The translations under genes were made by a program, and so were the position numbers. Positions 1-6,662 of a stretch of DNA of 6,662 nucleotides are shown here, piece after piece. Within the stretch, counting starts at the first letter, position 1. Each line of letters starts with the position of its first letter. The DNA is from an archaeon. GTDB lineage: Archaea; Asgardarchaeota; Thorarchaeia; Thorarchaeales; Thorarchaeaceae. Below the pieces are notes generated by a model, which made no database searches, was not told the origin of the DNA, and saw nothing but the letters and a program-made list of their open reading frames with translations. The DNA lies in the NCBI GenBank assembly GCA_024275415.1, contig JAJRZD010000116.1, positions 1 through 6,662 of the forward strand. The letters are read 5' to 3'.

Positions 1-49
1 CTGGTGACCAAGGTTGTACAACTAAAAATGAACGGTAAGGCACATTCCT

Positions 50-951
50 ATCCTCAATACGATAGACAACCTCGACCAGCAGAACCCGAACTCGTCGACA
101 CCACCCCCAACGCAGGATTCGCCGGATGGGGGAGAGCCAGAACCCGTGGTGCATGATGGAACTGGCACTGGCTCAATAAGAGAATCGCAATCTCAATCTG
201 CAGATGTTGCTCTTGCTCAGACTACTCGGCAGCTGACCGTTTACTTTTGGACAGGTTGGTGGCCCCTTTTGCACACTGTAATATATGAAGCACTTGGTCA
301 AGTAAGTTCGATAAACGAAATAATATCTACTTCAACAGTTATACTCCATACAACAATAGATTTACTGGGTGAGATAATCTGGTTGATTGATGATTTCATC
401 CAATGGGCTATGAATACTTTTGGTTGGGGGGCAGAATTCGTGGAATACCTTATCGCAATCATCAATGAGATTGCTGATGAAGCCATGGAAGCTGGAGTTC
501 TAATACTTATGGAGATGGCTGCTGCAGATGGATGGTCTATGATACGGTCATCTTGATTCCTCCAAATCCAGCTAATGCAGGACTTGTTCCAATGGCACTA
601 ACAACAGCTGCATTCCTCACGTGCCTTTTTATTGCAGTTGCCTTTACATTGACTGCCACACTCATCGAGCTATTTGGTTACTCGGCAGCTGGCGCATTGT
701 GGGTTTTCATTGGCATTGTAGCAGTGTTATCATATTTTGGCTTGGGATACATTAACTTGGTGTCTTCATCAATGAGGTCAATTGCAAGAGGGGTGTTCAA
801 TGCTGCAGCGAAATTCTTTGGATTTGGTGTCTATTACTTGGACAAGTCCAAGATCATATATGCACACGGAACACGGAATTTCTTTTATCCATTAATTGCC
901 ATTTCCATTGGTGCCATTGCATACTATGGATGGCTAGCGGGTCAAGAATAG
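50..951 (+). pseudogene. Cassette 1: start-less C-terminal module (conserved junction, WxGWWP domain, multi-TM tail), split by a frameshift near 525-545
   Basis: Frame +2 is open from 32 (after TGA 29-31) and reads ILNTIDNLDQQNPNSSTPPPTQDSPDGGEPEPVVHDG into ORF 146..556, with no ATG before the junction. ORF 532..951 (frame +1) supplies the hydrophobic tail. Joined, they give the same domain order as cassettes 2 and 3 (junction, WTGWWP at 248-265, IDLLG with DLLG at 359-370, TM helices). Confidence 0.75.
53..130 (+). repeat. Conserved junction repeat, copy 1 (most diverged)
   Basis: Encodes LNTIDNLDQQNPNSSTPPPTQDSPDG, 14 of 26 aa identical to copy 2 by manual alignment. The 13-mer acctcgaccagca (69-81) is also present in copy 3. 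Confidence 0.8.
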
Positions 952-954
952 GAG
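950..954 (+). promoter_or_regulatory. Putative Shine-Dalgarno site for the 964 gene
   Basis: AGGAG overlaps the cassette 1 stop codon (TAG 949-951) and lies 9 nt upstream of ATG 964. Confidence 0.5.
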
Positions 955-963
955 CGAACTCAA

Positions 964-1410
964 ATGCAATCTGAAAAGTCAATCATAGAGGGACTATGGC
1001 TTGTGGTAGGTGGAGAGGCGATACTATTCGCAATCTTTGGACTGATAATATATATCCTAACAATAAAGACTGACCAAACCCTTCTATCCAAATTATCTAG
1101 GATGAGTAATCCCTCTCAGGAGGCGGAATGTGGACTAATCAGGTTCTACACTAGACATACCCTTGGTTATGATATTCTGTTCTGGTCGCTCATTGTCGCT
1201 TCATTCACATGTGTGCTGTCCTATTTTTATCTCCGTATCGATATAGGAGGCTTTCTGATCACCGTTGTATTTCTGGTGTCATTCCTCTGGCAACTGAAAG
1301 ACGAAAAGCGTACTGCAAAGGGACGTGCTTTCCACTATCAGAGAACAAACGAAACCAATGGCATACTCCTCTTAGAAACTGAGGAGGACTCTGACATGAC
1401 AGGAGCATGA
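964..1410 (+). CDS. Small 3-TM membrane protein, putative cognate partner (immunity-like) of cassette 1
   Basis: Intact 148 aa ORF starting 12 nt after the cassette stop, with an RBS. Three hydrophobic segments, a polar loop after the first and an acidic C-terminal end. The function is inferred from position only. Confidence 0.75.
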   Translation: MQSEKSIIEGLWLVVGGEAILFAIFGLIIYILTIKTDQTLLSKLSRMSNPSQEAECGLIRFYTRHTLGYDILFWSLIVASFTCVLSYFYLRIDIGGFLITVVFLVSFLWQLKDEKRTAKGRAFHYQRTNETNGILLLETEEDSDMTGA

Positions 1411-1512
1411 ATTCTTCTACAAACTAATGTGGGAATATTCCCCTACGTTCTTAGTTTGGACGGTTCTATTGCCATGTACCATCCATAACGCACACTCGAG
1501 CAAGATGATTAA

Positions 1513-2340
1513 CTTCAAAGGACATTATTCACCTATGTCATCAACGTCGTCACTGACCTCAACAAGCACGACCCCAACTCAGCTACTCCGCCACCGACGC
1601 AGGATCCGCCTGCTGGTACTTCTGACACCACAGTACAATATGATGGTACTAACAAAGGTGTACCTGATTGTAGTGGTGGTCGAACATTTACTGCAAGCTA
1701 TGAGCAAATCGCCCAGAATGCCATTACTATAGCATGGGCCGGATGGTGGCCCACTCTGGTCATCACATGCAACTTAGATCTCCATGGACTTGCATTTGCA
1801 ATGGAACTAAGAGTCGACCTCCTTGGCTCACTCACAGTGTCCTCAATCAGTGTAAGCCATTCTGTCTTGAATTCTGCATCGGATGCAGAACTACAGGTAT
1901 CCATAGATACAATAATGGGTCTTAGTCCTGTGAAGTTCTACAGCATAGTAGCAGTCCTATCATTGACTAGCGCACAGTTTTGGGCAACATTTAGTTTGCT
2001 TCCATATGCAAAAGCGTTGTTTATCGCTTCAGTTGTTGCATATACGCTCTCTTCATTGGCGTTGATATACTCGATAGCGCAAGCCTATTTTGATGGTTCA
2101 CTAGGTTACCTTGATGCATTCGTTGGACTATTTTCAATAGTCTGGGGTCTTGTATTCGCAGGGCACACAATCTCGAACCAGAGCATTTTTGGTCGAATCT
2201 TCAGCTGCTTGGAAAAGTACCGAGCTCCACCCACTGATTGGGGTTACCCAGATGTCTTCCTACTTATGTCACGGGTATTGATTTTGCTCTTAGGAGTTGC
2301 AGTTGCTGCAGGTATCTTTTTTAGCGGAATTAGTGGCTAA
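1513..2340 (+). pseudogene. Cassette 2: start-less but otherwise uninterrupted C-terminal module
   Basis: Frame +1 is open from 1513 (after TAA 1510-1512) to 2340 and reads LQRTLFTYVINVVTDLNKHDPNSATPPPTQDPPAGTSDTTVQYDG...IAWAGWWPTL...MELRVDLLG... plus a multi-TM tail. The called ORF 1801..2340 is only its 3' part; there is no ATG before the junction. Confidence 0.8.
1540..1617 (+). repeat. Conserved junction repeat, copy 2
   Basis: Encodes INVVTDLNKHDPNSATPPPTQDPPAG. Bases 1539-1607 match 4707-4773 at 63 of 69 positions (4 substitutions, one 2-nt gap). Confidence 0.92.
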
Positions 2341-2381
2341 ACAAAATGGGCAGTATCAAAAAAAACTGGAAGTGCTGAGAG

Positions 2382-2807
2382 ATGGCGATTGATATTTCGC
2401 TTGTGTTATTCATATTTACACTTTCTAGCATCCCCTTCCTAATCATTGCAATTGCAACCGTACAGACAGTGATCTATAAGAATCGCATACTGAGAGGGGA
2501 TATCTCTCATGCATCCGAACTTCCCTACTTGGTTCGGATGCATGGAATAACGGTGCGGAAACTATCTACTAGTATCTTTACTAATGCTATAGTAGTTTCC
2601 ATCTTCTTTGGATTTCCGATTCTGTCTGTAGGGGTGCTGTGGCCCGAAGAACTGGGTTCTTTTATTGCAGACCTGCAATTTTGGATTATCCTATGGTTTG
2701 TGCTGGCCTTCATAAGAATCATGTTCTATAGTCCTGACTCAACAGGTGGCCTAGGCAATGCATATGAGCTTCTAGATGTGGACGAAAACAGAGAACATGA
2801 TACATAG
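2382..2807 (+). CDS. Small 3-TM membrane protein, putative cognate partner (immunity-like) of cassette 2
   Basis: Intact 141 aa ORF starting 41 nt after the cassette stop. Pattern is TM1, basic loop, TM2, TM3, acidic tail (ELLDVDENREHDT). Confidence 0.75.
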   Translation: MAIDISLVLFIFTLSSIPFLIIAIATVQTVIYKNRILRGDISHASELPYLVRMHGITVRKLSTSIFTNAIVVSIFFGFPILSVGVLWPEELGSFIADLQFWIILWFVLAFIRIMFYSPDSTGGLGNAYELLDVDENREHDT

Positions 2808-2858
2808 TATGTATCATTGAATTGGAAAGGGTCAAGGGTTTGATACTGGATTCAATGG

Positions 2859-3184
2859 ATGGAAAGGATAATCTTTGAACTAATACTTGGGATCATTTCT
2901 GTGGTAACAATGATCGTACTAGGTGCAATCTTGCTTCGCACACCCATCGGCAACAAAAAACAGGAGCGAAAAGAGGATCTAGAATTGTATTGATATGGGT
3001 CTTTGCGATTGCTATTCTGTCTTCTAGTTCTTACATTTTATGGTTAGCTCCCATAGATACAACCCCCATTGTACTAGATATTGTCATGACATTCATGGGG
3101 GCGATAGTATTTCCAAGTATCATGTACCCAACCCAAGGAGAAACGCAGGTACATGATCCAGATTCCACGGAACATCTCGAATGA
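2859..3184 (+). pseudogene. Frameshifted small membrane protein (second, orphan partner-like gene)
   Basis: ATG 2859 (frame +3) reads MERIIFELILGIISVVTMIVLGAILLRTPIGNKK. One extra A in the A6 run at 2955-2960 would join it to frame +2 TGAKRGSRIVLIWVFAIAIL...TEHLE (called ORF 2990..3184), giving an approximately 108 aa 3-TM protein. Confidence 0.6.
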
Positions 3185-3432
3185 TGATGGCTTTCAATTC
3201 ATTCCCTGGGAGAGGCTCGACATATCTCATTAGGGATACGAGTCGCATTGAGGTAATCTACTATGATCCAACACCTAATAGACACCACAATGGTTAGTGT
3301 CAATGCTCGTACAGAAATATGACAATGCTGATGCAATCGGTTCCTGATGTACATGAGTCTGCACTAATCGTTTTTGTGATTTCCGCAGTCCACTGGCTGA
3401 CTGTGCCGTAATGACTATATGCAGACAGACTT

Positions 3433-3777
3433 TCAATCACGCATCTCTTGGAAAAGCCTGATGATTTCGGGTTTGATCTGGGGTATGGCAATCTCTATCG
3501 CATCCCATACGAGCTTGTAATCGATTCCAAAATAGGCATGAATTAGTCTGTCACGCATCCCTGCCATCTCCTTCCATGGTACATTGGGAGCCTTGTCCCT
3601 GACACTATCGGGAACTCTCTTCGCAGCCTCTCCAATGATTTGGAACTTCAATACGACCGCACTGGATGTCTTATCGTCATTGACAAAATCCTGATAGTCA
3701 ATACCTTCCACGAATCGCTCAATCGCCTCAATAGCATCCAGTATATCGCTTAAGAAGAATCGGGTCTCTCGGTTCAT
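3433..3777 (-). CDS. hepT: HEPN-domain (DUF86/HepT-like) RNase toxin
   Basis: 114 aa with a typical DUF86 pattern (LSDILDAIEAIERF...IIGEAAKRV...VPWKEMAGMRDRLIHAYFGID...VWDAI). RDRLIHAY fits the RX4HXY motif. Its start overlaps the upstream MNT stop (ATGA, 3774-3777). Confidence 0.93.
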   Translation of the reverse strand: MNRETRFFLSDILDAIEAIERFVEGIDYQDFVNDDKTSSAVVLKFQIIGEAAKRVPDSVRDKAPNVPWKEMAGMRDRLIHAYFGIDYKLVWDAIEIAIPQIKPEIIRLFQEMRD

Positions 3778-4067
3778 ATTGCCACGACCTCGGCTAATAT
3801 CATATTCCTTAGCTCTGAACGCAGCGTCCTCTCAGAAACAACATCTACTTTCTTGCCCAGCAACTCTTCGAGGAAGAAACCTAGTCCGACCATGTCGAAT
3901 AGAGTGGCACCATCTTTGAATCTGACGAGGATATCGATATCACTTCCTGGCTTTTGGGTACCTCTTGCATATGAACCGAAAATGCCTAGGATTTGGGCCT
4001 TGAACTTGGATGCGACCAGTTCTTTCTTGCCATTAAGGGTCATTTTCAGTTCTTCTAATGCATCCAT
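3774..4067 (-). CDS. mntA: Minimal nucleotidyltransferase (MNT) antitoxin
   Basis: 97 aa with IFGSYARGTQKPGSDIDILV, which fits GSX10DXD, and a C-terminal LEELLGKKVDVV segment typical of MNTs. Translationally coupled to the HEPN gene. Confidence 0.93.
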   Translation of the reverse strand: MDALEELKMTLNGKKELVASKFKAQILGIFGSYARGTQKPGSDIDILVRFKDGATLFDMVGLGFFLEELLGKKVDVVSERTLRSELRNMILAEVVAI

Positions 4068-4076
4068 ACTTTCGTG

Positions 4077-4082
4077 ACCACC
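4077..4082 (-). promoter_or_regulatory. Possible Shine-Dalgarno site for the MNT gene
   Basis: GGTGGT on the minus strand, 9 nt upstream of the ATG at 4067. Confidence 0.35.
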
Positions 4083-4119
4083 AAGATCTATTCATGTATC
4101 AATGTCGTCCAGAACCTAA

Positions 4120-4339
4120 AAAGCATTTGAAAAGCATGAACCAGAGCAACTTTTGGACTACACATTTGGATCCATCCTTGCAACAGCAGCATTATTTGTG
4201 GTCACGGCCATCCTAGCTATATGGCAACCAATAACCACAGTTGACATTTCATCGGATCTAGAATACTGACAGCATCTATAATGTTGGCTTGGCATACACT
4301 GCATTTTTGGGTTCTCTGATACTAATAGGAGAACAATGA
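4120..4339 (+). pseudogene. Possible remnant of another small membrane protein gene
   Basis: Frame +1 (4120-4269) reads KAFEKHEPEQLLDYTFGSILATAALFVVTAILAIWQPITTVDISSDLEY. Frame +2 (4262-4339) reads NTDSIYNVGLAYTAFLGSLILIGEQ. This gives two TM-like stretches in adjacent frames with no start codon. Confidence 0.35.
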
Positions 4340-4475
4340 ACAGCCCGATTGGTAAGACAGATGGAGGTTGGTGAATGCAAACAGGAATAGATCACCTTTC
4401 ACACATCTCATTGTCGAATGAGTTATATTCGGGCTGTCGTATGCTACATCACGAGTAATGTAAAAGGGGGATGAG

Positions 4476-5545
4476 ATGTCGTGTCCTCATGCGGACTTGC
4501 GGATAACCTATACGAAGGACCACTACTACGAGGTATGGTACGCTCGCAGCTCCTGCCCCCGGAAACCCGATCTTTACAAGCATCGACGGGTCAGGGTCGT
4601 CCCAGCCCATCGGTGAGGTAGAGAACGCCTCCCGGGTCATCACGTACGTGGGGGTCCTGGGCTACCGCCTTGACAGCTACACCCTGGTGGACATGCGCCT
4701 CCACGACATCAACGTCGTCACAGACCTCGACCAGCACGACCCCAACTCAGCTACTCCCACCGACGCATGATCCTCCAGCCGGAGAAGAATCATCCTTCAT
4801 CGAGTATGATGGGATCTCCAATGGCAATGATGCTGTGATTGAAGAAACATATGGGACTCATTTTGACCAGATCCAAAATGACGCAGCTGATGCTGTAGTG
4901 ACTTACTGGATCGGTTGGTGGCCTGAACTACATGTTGATGTTACAAAATCATATTCAGCGGATGTCCAGATTACAGTCCGCTCCAAAATAGATATCCTCG
5001 GAAGTTGTACCATTGAGAGCATTGATGTACAATTGGCTGGATTGGAAGACCTTACTGAGGAAGAGGCAGATGTAATGGTTCAAACTCAGCAACAAAATAC
5101 TAACCAGTTTGCCAAAGATATGGTGGCATTTTGGGGGTATGCAGTCATGCTCGCGTTTTTTGTATTGGGAATAACAACAATGCTCCCAACGCCAATTGCT
5201 GATGGCCCACTTGCTTCAATATGTGTCATTGTTGGTTTTACATATTTCTTCTATTGCTGGACACTTGTTTATGCTTTGAGACATTCAGCACTTACACAAG
5301 AACAAATATCTGACACGTTCATAACGCAGAGTCTATCGCTACTCCTTGCCGCATTAACCTTTTTCCTGGGAGCTAGATGGGCTGGAGGTAGCTTCGGAAG
5401 AGTTCTGGGAGAATTCGGGGGTAATTATGGCATCACCAAGAAGGGCTTTGCCATTCGCTCAAACATGGCAGCGTTTATTACATGTCTGCTATGTCTTTTG
5501 ATGACTCTGGGAATATGGCATGGTGTAAACATGGGATGGTGGTAA
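4476..5545 (+). pseudogene. Cassette 3: long GC-rich parent-gene fragment with two frameshifts, fused to an intact variable C-terminal module
   Basis: Frame +3 reads ADLRITYTKDHYYEVWYARSSCP with GC-rich third positions, then shifts at the C5 run (4556-4560) to frame +1 GNPIFTSIDGSGSSQPIGEVENASRVITYVGVLGYRLDSYTLVDMRLHDINVVTDLDQHDPNSAT. A 2-nt deletion relative to copy 2 (about 4757) then shifts to frame +2 PPTHDPPAG...YWIGWWPELH...IDILG... and the multi-TM tail ending at 5545. GC is 145/240 (60%) over 4501-4740. Confidence 0.8.
4708..4783 (+). repeat. Conserved junction repeat, copy 3 (carries a 2-nt deletion)
   Basis: About 91% identical to copy 2 over 69 aligned positions. It reads gctactc-ccaccg where copy 2 has gctactccgccaccg. 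Confidence 0.92.
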
Positions 5546-5569: not shown

Positions 5570-5935
5570 ATGGAGTGGATAGAGATGTTTAGGGTTGAGT
5601 ATTTAGTGCCAGGGTTGATGGTGACCATTGCAAGTTTCATCTACGTCTATTCTGCCATGAGGGCAAGATCCAAGATGCAGAGTGTAGATGATTATTTGAC
5701 AGTTTGGGGTAGAAGGTTCGTTCAGAATACAGACAACATGATTGCCATGGGGACGTTCTGGATCCTCACGTTGACAGCGCCATTCCTTTCTGCATACTTG
5801 CTGACGTTTATCTTCATGCCCCTCGATCTAAATGATGTATTCTCAACCACCTATGTCGGATTTGGCTTATCATTGATAATAGGCATTCTGGCACCATTCC
5901 GTTTCAAAGAAATAGAAGACACGGTCATTTCCTGA
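5570..5935 (+). CDS. Small 3-TM membrane protein, putative cognate partner (immunity-like) of cassette 3
   Basis: Intact 121 aa ORF starting 24 nt after the cassette stop (ATG 5585 is an alternative start). Pattern is TM1, basic loop, TM2, TM3, acidic tail. Confidence 0.75.
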   Translation: MEWIEMFRVEYLVPGLMVTIASFIYVYSAMRARSKMQSVDDYLTVWGRRFVQNTDNMIAMGTFWILTLTAPFLSAYLLTFIFMPLDLNDVFSTTYVGFGLSLIIGILAPFRFKEIEDTVIS

Positions 5936-5954: not shown

Positions 5955-6343
5955 GTGCAGAATTTACTCGATACGGCACTGTTCTTCAATTTCGTACTAG
6001 CGGGTATTCTTGATTCATCGGGGGAGAAATAATCGATGGAACAATTGAATCGCTGGAGGACAAGGACGTCGGTGAGTTCGGCCTGAGGATGGGACTACTT
6101 TATCGTGAGAAACGACGCACATGGCATGCTCTTGCGGGTGGATCTGTAGTTATGGCATGGATCTTGCTTGCGACTGGTGGATATATATCCAGCCTGCAAT
6201 TGCTATGGGACTATCCGGGCCTTGTCATTGAAAGCGTGGCCATTGTAATCGTTGCATTCACCTTGCTTCCCATTTTTCTCTGGCATCGATTAAGGTACAT
6301 GTCCAAGTTCTCCACGCAGACACACGTAAGGGAAAACATCTGA
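5955..6343 (+). pseudogene. Frameshifted small membrane protein (second, orphan partner-like gene)
   Basis: GTG 5955 follows GGGGAG (5943-5948) and reads MQNLLDTALFFNFVLAGIL in frame +3. A shift near 6012 to frame +2 gives FIGGEIIDGTIESLEDKDVGEFGLR, which runs into ORF 6089..6343. The joined product is an approximately 129 aa 3-TM protein. Confidence 0.6.
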
Positions 6344-6443
6344 CCATGATGGTTCTATTGACGACTAGGAATTCATGAGCAAACTCAGATGTTGGTATCG
6401 GGATTGACAACCACATGAAGGTGCCCCATTTGACTTGTTCTCT

Positions 6444-6662
6444 ATGAATGTCTGGATGGGCAAGACTTACGTTGCCCTCTTCGACGAGGACAAGCAGACC
6501 GTCATGTAGATCCTCTGGGGCGACTCCTGGGTGGGGAGCACGAAGGGGTACTTCAACGTCTACTACTACCCCCAGAGCGGCGGTTACTATACGCAAGGCT
6601 CAGGGTACCTCTACTCCTCCTTCACCAAGACGGGGAAGTTGTGGTGGGGCCCGTACCAGGGC
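6444..6662 (+). pseudogene. Probable start of cassette 4: GC-rich parent-gene fragment with an in-frame stop, truncated by the window edge
   Basis: Frame +3 reads MNVWMGKTYVALFDEDKQTVM*ILWGDSWVGSTKGYFNVYYYPQSGGYYTQGSGYLYSSFTKTGKLWWGPYQG, with TAG at 6507-6509. GC is 107/180 (59%) over 6481-6660, third positions are strongly G/C, and the Tyr/Gly/Trp-rich composition resembles the cassette 3 arm. Confidence 0.55.

Follow-up and report, generated by a model that had tools for sequence, protein, structure and literature searches.

A row of spare membrane-tail and partner cassettes for the C-terminus of a large Thorarchaeota surface protein

In the ionophoric CdiA-CT/CdiI pair of E. coli EC93, as in the pore-forming colicins, which have immunity proteins of three to four transmembrane (TM) helices, specificity is thought to lie in helix-helix contacts; the colicin pore domain is a ten-helix bundle that is water-soluble before insertion. 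In Proteus mirabilis, IdsD and IdsE are exported by the type VI system and encoded by adjacent genes, and variable regions in or near their membrane helices set an allele-restricted pairing. Competition and mutual recognition among archaea, and among Asgard archaea especially, are to our knowledge still poorly understood, and Thorarchaeota are close relatives of the eukaryotic ancestor. Here, we describe a window of 6,662 nucleotides (nt), which is the entire contig C102 of a 127-contig, 3.5-Mb Thorarchaeota metagenome-assembled genome, and which consists of a row of spare “tail + partner” cassettes for the C-terminus of a large Sec-exported Thorarchaeota surface protein with predicted lectin-like jelly-roll domains. 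Two kinds of published loci can be set beside it. Polymorphic toxin systems (CdiA-CT/CdiI, Rhs and MafB, together with arrays of orphan C-terminal (CT)/immunity cassettes) are taken here as defined by Zhang et al., 2012 (PMC3482391). The VARTIG module of Thermococcales comprises a large surface protein, the C-terminus of which is hypervariable via recombination, followed by variable small genes, and its function is unknown (PMC8416519). Its authors likened it to polymorphic toxin systems and found no counterpart outside Thermococcales (PMC8416519).

The 16S gene of the genome has an archaeal appearance. Both ends of the contig fall within repeats, i.e., the end of the constant region at 1-130 and the degenerate start of a constant domain at 6402-6662. 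Between these ends lie three units, each made of a constant-region remnant, a variable C-terminal part (CT1 to CT3) and a small membrane-protein gene (P1 to P3) (Table 1). About 22 units of this kind are carried by the genome, on contigs C39, C110, C119, C53, C96 and the present one, and one of them, on C119, is joined to a full-length main gene (L001 2586-5956). The latter is made of two open reading frames (ORFs) overlapping by ATGA, the first encoding 679 amino acids (aa) with an N-terminal signal anchor and the second 445 aa. Its homologue P0092 is a single ORF of 1081 aa spanning both, and the two-ORF form could reflect a genuine split, a frameshift or faulty assembly. The longer relatives, which reach 2092 aa, bear Glce-type beta-sandwich and DUF2341 domains. 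Pfam searches with the core proteins gave beta-sandwich domains only, with no recognizable trafficking or release domain (TPS, PAAR, LXG, HINT, caspase-like and others). AlphaFold2 modeled the 445-aa protein as a jelly roll (residues 1-175) and a disordered stretch (residues 181-214), with the tail module coming next. This jelly roll matches galectins, PL7 lyases and a phage carbohydrate-binding module (Foldseek E ~1e-5, target TM-score up to 0.62). According to the model, the last constant domain is a galectin/PL7-like jelly roll and the ectodomain is lectin-like.

The sole DNA common to the cassettes is a linker of ~90 nt encoding …VDMRxHDxNVVxDLxxHDPNSSTPPPTQDPPAG. Among 16 copies in the genome, nucleotide identity reaches ~70% across this linker and then drops to ~30%, with a small peak at a tryptophan-rich motif of the tail (the W motif, see below). 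Because of this drop, the linker is likely to be the segment at which crossovers between cassettes occur.

It was originally predicted that the three variable C-termini belong to one hyperdivergent family, rather than being unrelated domains. This is supported by their motifs, their uniform length, their common four-TM plan, the transitive sequence links between them and the same predicted architecture in two tail types, so that the tails can be regarded as very divergent versions of one homologous module. The W motif was found exactly where it had been placed (WTGWWPLL at 248-271, WAGWWPTL at 1735-1758 and WIGWWPEL at 4907-4930), as was the [IV]D[LI]LG motif (IDLLG at 356-370 with D at 359, VDLLG at 1813-1827 with D at 1816, and IDILG at 4988-5002 with D at 4991). 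The differences in motif spacing between copies had been given correctly, whereas the absolute counts of 31, 21 and 22 residues were each three too high; counted from the end of the W motif to the [IV] of the second motif, the spacers comprise 28, 18 and 19 residues. The tails also have the other features ascribed to them, namely hydrophobic helices, an amphipathic segment (ARGVF, FGRIF or FGRVL) and a TM helix at the end.

Recurrence of the W motif is far above chance, since a six-frame translation of the 3.5-Mb genome contains W.G[WFY]WP 17 times, versus an estimated ~0.04 expected from residue frequencies, and 16 of these 17 occurrences lie in cassettes of this kind. Looser forms (WTGPWP, W..QWWP, W..NFWP) are found in the remaining copies. 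Every copy in this genome, as well as ~210 relatives, has the patterns W-x-G-[WP]-W-P-x-L-H and h-D-h-L-G or close variants of them. DGT, a third motif that is near-invariant, stands ~30 residues upstream of the W motif (155-163 in CT1, 1642-1650 in CT2), its counterpart in CT3 being DGI at 4808-4816. Autoproteolysis of the GAIN/GPS type at the conserved LH was considered and dropped, as no conserved nucleophile follows LH and the GAIN/polycystin rows were far from significant.

The order of elements in the module is an amphipathic helix, a four-stranded sheet with WxG[WP]WPxLH and hDhLG at its core, an acidic helix, three hydrophobic helices, a basic amphipathic loop and a fourth hydrophobic helix. 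The length after DLLG is uniform (median 184 aa, interquartile range 174-188). In the 80 tails for which a simple hydropathy scan gave four helices, these start at residues 36, 66, 101 and 153 after DLLG, with a standard deviation of 8-9 residues. The segment before TM1 is acidic (7.2 D+E for 0.85 K+R) and the loop between TM3 and TM4 is basic (4.3 K+R). From the positive-inside rule, this charge pattern points to an N-out, C-out topology, which agrees with an extracellular lectin domain. Besides, a …G-W-W or similar aromatic pair comes right after the last helix in several otherwise dissimilar tail types (5534-5542 in the window; C53, C110:77144, L025, L039, L022), and this C-terminal pair may be an interfacial anchor.

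Sequence links were examined for the membrane part only, i.e., after removal of the first 45 residues following DLLG, in 165 distinct tails using collinear blastp matches and single linkage. Under these conditions, 26 clusters were obtained at E ≤ 1e-5, while a single cluster gathered 95 tails at E ≤ 1e-3 and 133 at E ≤ 0.01; matches to reversed-sequence decoys numbered 0, 3 and 9 at these three thresholds, respectively. Profile-profile comparison (hhalign) was then applied to a set of 53 tails giving 153 cluster pairs, 29 of which were collinear and scored above every reversed decoy (top decoy score 16.8), and just two of which reached 90% probability. The CT3-type cluster was joined end to end to a third cluster (96%, 130 columns), and so was the CT2-type cluster to the same third one (59%, E 9e-5, 117 columns). 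The CT1 type was only weakly linked (blastp E 0.004-0.007; hhalign 6%), and common ancestry of every tail cluster goes beyond what these comparisons prove. The CT2 tail is 42-52% identical to tails in other Thorarchaeota genomes, and the CT3 tail aligns over its whole length with tails from two other genomes at 25-28% identity.

The AlphaFold2 model of CT2 (pLDDT 82.5, pTM 0.69, 138 aligned sequences) shows a helix (residues 43-58), four strands (59-64, 69-78, 81-90 and 95-104), short helices and then long helices at 126-147, 154-181, 187-203, 213-224 (the amphipathic one) and 233-262. In this model, the W motif forms the first hairpin and DLLG lies at the end of strand 3. The same order of elements was obtained with AlphaFold2 for the C119 tail, which belongs to another sequence cluster. 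The tail module is thereby predicted to be a small sheet on a four-helix membrane bundle.

A small ORF follows nearly every cassette for which the downstream DNA is readable, with a gap mostly below 90 nt and up to ~150 nt. According to a hydropathy scan, 29 of the 44 partners share one plan, namely an N-terminal TM1, a loop of 30-40 residues and a TM2-TM3 hairpin, and every tail type is accompanied by a small three-helix membrane protein of a type specific to it. This is illustrated by the cassette pairs with similar tails (E < 1e-5), of which 21 out of 36 also have similar partners (E < 1e-3), versus 4 out of 825 for pairs with dissimilar tails. These pairs are not phylogenetically independent, yet the pattern recurs in ~10 separate tail types. 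Coevolution between the C-termini and their adjacent genes, on which the original prediction hinged, is seen as a co-variation of types, so that neither this check nor the search for a known membrane domain (see below) refuted the one-family claim. Relatives of P2 are found behind four other CT2-type tails in other genomes, with 15 invariant positions, including LPxLVxLH, FGxPxL…LWPE and SPDxTGGLG, and P3 weakly resembles the partner in a CT3-type cassette (E 5e-4). As profiles link only some of the partner clusters, a single family is not shown for the partners.

In one type shared by three genomes, the ratio of nonsynonymous to synonymous substitution rates (dN/dS) was ~0.09 for the tail and ~0.24 for the partner; between cassette types this ratio is not usable, dS being saturated in all but one tail type. 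The values indicate that, within that type, tail and partner are both under purifying selection and are functional genes, while between types they have diverged almost beyond recognition. Prediction of a complex between CT2 (residues 43-263) and P2 returned a score of 0.01, which is evidence neither for nor against an interaction.

The domain had not been recognized in the original prediction, and no known membrane domain was matched in Pfam, in PDB sequences or in fold searches. Pfam gave nothing at E ≤ 0.01 for 38 aligned tails, nor for the three tails and three partners of the window, and the tail profile had no significant match among PDB sequences. The TM region of the nhTMEM16 lipid scramblase (E 0.01, 18.9 bits) was rejected as probably compositional, as no stretch passes alone. 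With the CT2 model, Foldseek found nothing below E 0.008 in the PDB and only TM-scores below 0.3 in the Atlas, and VIA-align listed generic helical bundles only, with Z up to 11.4 against designed repeat proteins. TM domains of the MacB/FtsX type (Z 7-8.6, rmsd above 5 Å) were treated as generic as well, and the Atlas feature search with the CT2 module returned no usable match.

Word-indexed protein searches with CT2 and P2 gave matches almost exclusively to this genome's own proteins. An exhaustive profile search through 1.84 billion representative proteins retrieved 234 proteins at E ≤ 1e-3; among the matches listed (150 of 234), the alignment reaches or nears the C-terminal end in nearly all, and the named ones are from “Candidatus Thorarchaeota archaeon.” Within the archaeal family to which this genome belongs, the whole-genome profile search matched 27 of 81 genomes and 13 of 16 genera. 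In a phylum-wide sample, matches were found in 18 of 43 genomes of this family (the present genome excluded) and in none of the 157 genomes from 26 other Asgard families. Among the genomes searched, the tail family is restricted to one archaeal family.

Not one of the three tails of the window forms an intact gene. In CT1, the loss of one base in the G-run at 533-536 leaves the front part in frame 2 (29-556) and the rear part in frame 1 (532-951), and the intact homologues P0141 and P0137 align to CT1 in frame +2 until ~base 535 and in frame +1 from ~base 529. CT2 is preceded by a stop at 1510, and the earliest start codon available to it is the Met at 1801 (MELRVDLLG). CT3 and the core remnant upstream of it (4507-4770) differ in register by 2 nt, with a 2-nt gap in the linker at 4757-4760; owing to a 2-nt gap relative to other copies (repeat spacing of 3168 versus 3166), this remnant ends at a stop. 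The breaks at 533-536 and 4757-4760 may each result from mutation or from assembly error. More generally, orphan cassettes are devoid of start codons and core remnants are kept with stops or frameshifts, as in the last remnant of the window (6402-6662), which contains an in-frame TGA (6405-6407) and an in-frame TAG (6508-6510). Because in-frame stops or frameshifts sit at different codons in different core remnants (6402-6662 of the window, C110:86621-86821 and C39:5756-6280), the remnants decayed independently. Recoding via a conserved in-frame TAG was ruled out for the same reason.

Other genes are found along the array. An MNT/HepT toxin-antitoxin pair (3433-4067) is an insertion that interrupts the array and lies outside the cassette system. 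Two other Thorarchaeota assemblies also have a pair of these two families, whether orthologous or not (L046:4251-5113; L047:3767-4629), which in each case immediately precedes a CT2-type gene. The two short ORFs behind P2 gave no significant match in a similarity search and are probably a frameshifted extra partner gene. Besides, the 84-aa ORF at 6089-6343 shares 38% identity (E 1e-10) with an ORF from a congeneric genome's array (L044:3150-3527, minus strand) and 33% with C38:47562-47777 of the genome studied here; it may be a further array-associated small membrane protein.

Table 1. Features of the 6,662-nt window, with positions counted from its first base.
Feature	Positions	Strand	Description or basis
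Remnant of the core gene's constant end and Pro/Thr linker (…LNTIDNLDQQNPNSSTPPPTQDSPDG)	1-130	+	Frame 2 from base 29; direct repeats D1/D2 with 1539-1616 and 4707-4782; tblastn matches to other arrays
CT1, front part	29-556	+	Frame 2; linker, DGT, W motif, IDLLG, acidic helix; frame closes at a stop past the frameshift
CT1, rear part	532-951	+	Frame 1; hydrophobic helices, amphipathic SIARGVF segment, terminal helix
P1, partner gene of CT1	964-1410	+	148 aa, three predicted TM helices; no Pfam family
CT2, orphan cassette, intact but start-less	1513-2340	+	Translation and AlphaFold2 model
CT2 linker	1540-1620	+	
CT2 DGT	1642-1650	+	
CT2 helix	1675-1722	+	Model
CT2 four strands	1723-1860	+	Model; include W motif (1735-1758) and VDLLG (1813-1827)
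CT2 TM1	1924-1989	+	
CT2 TM2	2008-2091	+	
CT2 TM3	2107-2157	+	
CT2 amphipathic helix (FGRIF)	2185-2220	+	
CT2 TM4	2245-2334	+	
P2, partner gene of CT2	2382-2807	+	141 aa, three TM helices
Two short ORFs	2859-3184	+	44 and 64 aa in different frames; jointly show the partner plan (TM, basic loop, two TM)
HepT	3433-3777	-	Pfam PF01934, 1.6e-29
MNT nucleotidyltransferase	3774-4067	-	Pfam PF01909, 2.2e-15
Remnant: last ~85 residues of the constant domain (predicted lectin-like) and linker	4507-4770	+	Frame 1; 81-89% identical to the C119, C53 and C39 copies
CT3	4760-5545	+	Frame 2; linker end PPTHDPPAG, four hydrophobic helices, FGRVL segment, C-terminal end …GWW
P3, partner gene of CT3	5570-5935	+	121 aa, three TM helices
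84-aa ORF	6089-6343	+	Two TM helices; recurrent in such arrays
Degenerate start of another copy of the constant domain (predicted lectin-like)	6402-6662	+	81-93% identical to C119:104760-104962

The best explanation overall, and the one toward which we lean, is that the window holds spare cassettes of one membrane-tail family, the cognate partners of which would act with the tails as poison-antidote pairs. A lock-and-key system, i.e., a pore-forming toxin with its immunity protein or a device for self/non-self recognition, had been put forward from the start and is plausible. In the proposed mechanism, the tail would insert N-out in the membrane of the producer and pair helix to helix with its cognate partner, while an unpartnered or mismatched tail would harm the membrane. 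Recombination at the linker would exchange the expressed tail, thereby changing the “type” of the cell, and retained spare partners would protect against other types. Delivery could occur through release by a protease domain, through vesicles, or through membrane contact or fusion. A related and rather unlikely proposal is an intramembrane allorecognition code, in which the four-helix allelic tail and the three-helix partner would form an allele-specific seven-helix complex and an unpartnered tail would damage the membrane on contact, exchange or fusion of membranes. If so, only kin would share membrane, and spare cassettes would allow type switching together with protection against multiple types.

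Several observations weigh against a poison-antidote pair. Neither tail nor partner matches a toxin, pore or immunity family in Pfam, nor does the tail profile among PDB sequences, and the fold searches with the CT2 model lead to generic helical bundles only. Its strong hydrophobicity and predicted N-out topology make the tail look more like an anchor that resides in the membrane than like a toxin that is secreted in soluble form. Delivery is the weakest step of the mechanism, with no evident route to a target cell and no secretion or delivery gene in the window; the resemblance of the N-terminal part of the core to CHAT/caspase-like proteins is a weak lead from a feature search (0.88). Moreover, the partners within some tail types show no detectable similarity, as for C119 and L007, whose tails are 48% identical while their partners do not match. 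CT1 and certain other tail clusters are not linkable to the rest by sequence, and two of the three window tails cannot be joined in frame to the constant part as they stand.

These points leave room for recognition without poison, where an allele-specific intramembrane complex would tell kin from non-kin, the lectin-like ectodomain would make the contact, and a mismatch would alter behavior with no killing. Alleles that keep one fold and differ in their membrane helices are what a binding-specificity code would produce; the co-variation of tail and partner types, the predicted lectin-like ectodomain and the absence of a detected toxin family in Pfam are all consistent with it. However, a protective role of the partners would more readily account for intact partner genes beside broken tails (CT1/P1 and CT3/P3), and Pfam reveals no signaling domain on tail or partner. 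We regard this explanation as improbable. Lower still do we place the possibility that there is no conflict at all, the module being the anchor of a surface lectin, the small gene an assembly or stabilizing subunit, and the arrays decaying duplicates, with variation due to weak constraint or to escape from viruses or toxins that use the anchor as receptor. The predicted N-out four-TM topology behind a signal-anchored ectodomain, the many broken copies and the failure to find a toxin signature would suit such an anchor. Still, a dN/dS of ~0.09 within one type across genera, combined with types that are almost unalignable, is unlike relaxed drift, and the cassettes retain a common crossover segment and their own partner. 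The presence of up to ~22 cassettes per genome and of matches in 13 of the 16 genera of the family also speaks against it.

Finally, the likeness between tails might stop at their first ~100 residues (linker, DGT, W motif and DLLG), which would then be a shared “pre-toxin” junction, the membrane regions being unrelated and alike through hydrophobicity. This would suit the many tail clusters, including the CT1 type, that lack a significant profile match, and the mere two of 153 cluster pairs at 90%. It is nevertheless very unlikely given the uniform tail length, the narrow spread of helix starts (8-9 residues) and the common charge pattern, in addition to the 29 of 153 collinear cluster pairs beating all reversed decoys, the 133 of 165 tails linked at E ≤ 0.01 and the same architecture predicted in two tail types. 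Spare cassettes of one tail family, with the partners as putative antidotes, remain the explanation that we favor.

The locus has the layout of bacterial polymorphic toxin/immunity loci, but the proteins composing it have no match among described families or solved folds. As the variability is confined to one membrane-embedded fold and to a matching small membrane protein, it offers a clean, testable case of specificity in helix-helix contacts, with dozens of natural tail/partner alleles of one scaffold for the comparison of cognate and non-cognate pairs. Should killing or kin recognition on contact prove true, this would bear on how membrane interactions are controlled in syntrophic, protrusion-forming relatives of eukaryotes.

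Within the collection of papers searched, none was found to describe this module, and none to pair Thorarchaeota with polymorphic toxins. What is shared with polymorphic toxin systems is a large exported protein, the body of which is constant and the C-terminal module exchangeable (the C119 gene has a signal anchor and is variable past the linker), a small cognate gene directly downstream of each C-terminal domain, for which an immunity role is putative, and start-less spare cassettes, three of them in the window, that keep a short constant stretch for recombination. Unlike these systems, the host is archaeal, and Pfam finds no RHS/YD, TPS/FHA, PAAR, LXG or other known trafficking domain. With regard to Rhs/YD-repeat toxins in particular, neither the proteins of the window nor those of C119 nor the long homologues have an RHS or YD match in Pfam. 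Those toxins have YD repeats that form a shell and a PxxxxDPxGL cleavage motif before the CT; the junction here reads DPNSSTPPPTQDPPAG…DGT…WxGWWPxLH. As compared with contact-dependent inhibition loci (CDI; CdiB/CdiA/CdiI), no Pfam match to a TPS domain, FHA repeats, a VENN junction or a CdiB transporter was obtained.

The resemblance to membrane-acting CT toxins and colicins lies in a hydrophobic C-terminal domain paired with an adjacently encoded small polytopic membrane protein. No match in sequence or fold was obtained, the colicin pore-forming domain having no Pfam match among the 38 tail members and the fold searches listing generic bundles only, and the tails look constitutively membrane-embedded. 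With IdsD/IdsE, the locus has in common adjacent genes and one fold with many alleles, a likeness by description that on our side consists of type co-variation; the Ids proteins differ in relying on a type VI system for export and are not known to come with comparable cassette arrays. VARTIG is likewise an archaeal, lineage-restricted locus with a hypervariable C-terminus of a large surface protein and variable small genes. There, the variable part is an extracellular Ig domain (arCOG07710 protein), whereas here it is a predicted four-TM bundle behind a lectin-like jelly roll, with spare cassettes in tandem. New to the present work are the one-family result, the count of tail/partner co-variation, the predicted topology, the finding that the tails are confined to a single archaeal family, and the searches for related folds. 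The departure from the logic of polymorphic toxins is that these swap many unrelated, mostly enzymatic folds, whereas the polymorphism of the Thorarchaeota tails is allelic, within versions of one integral four-helix membrane domain.

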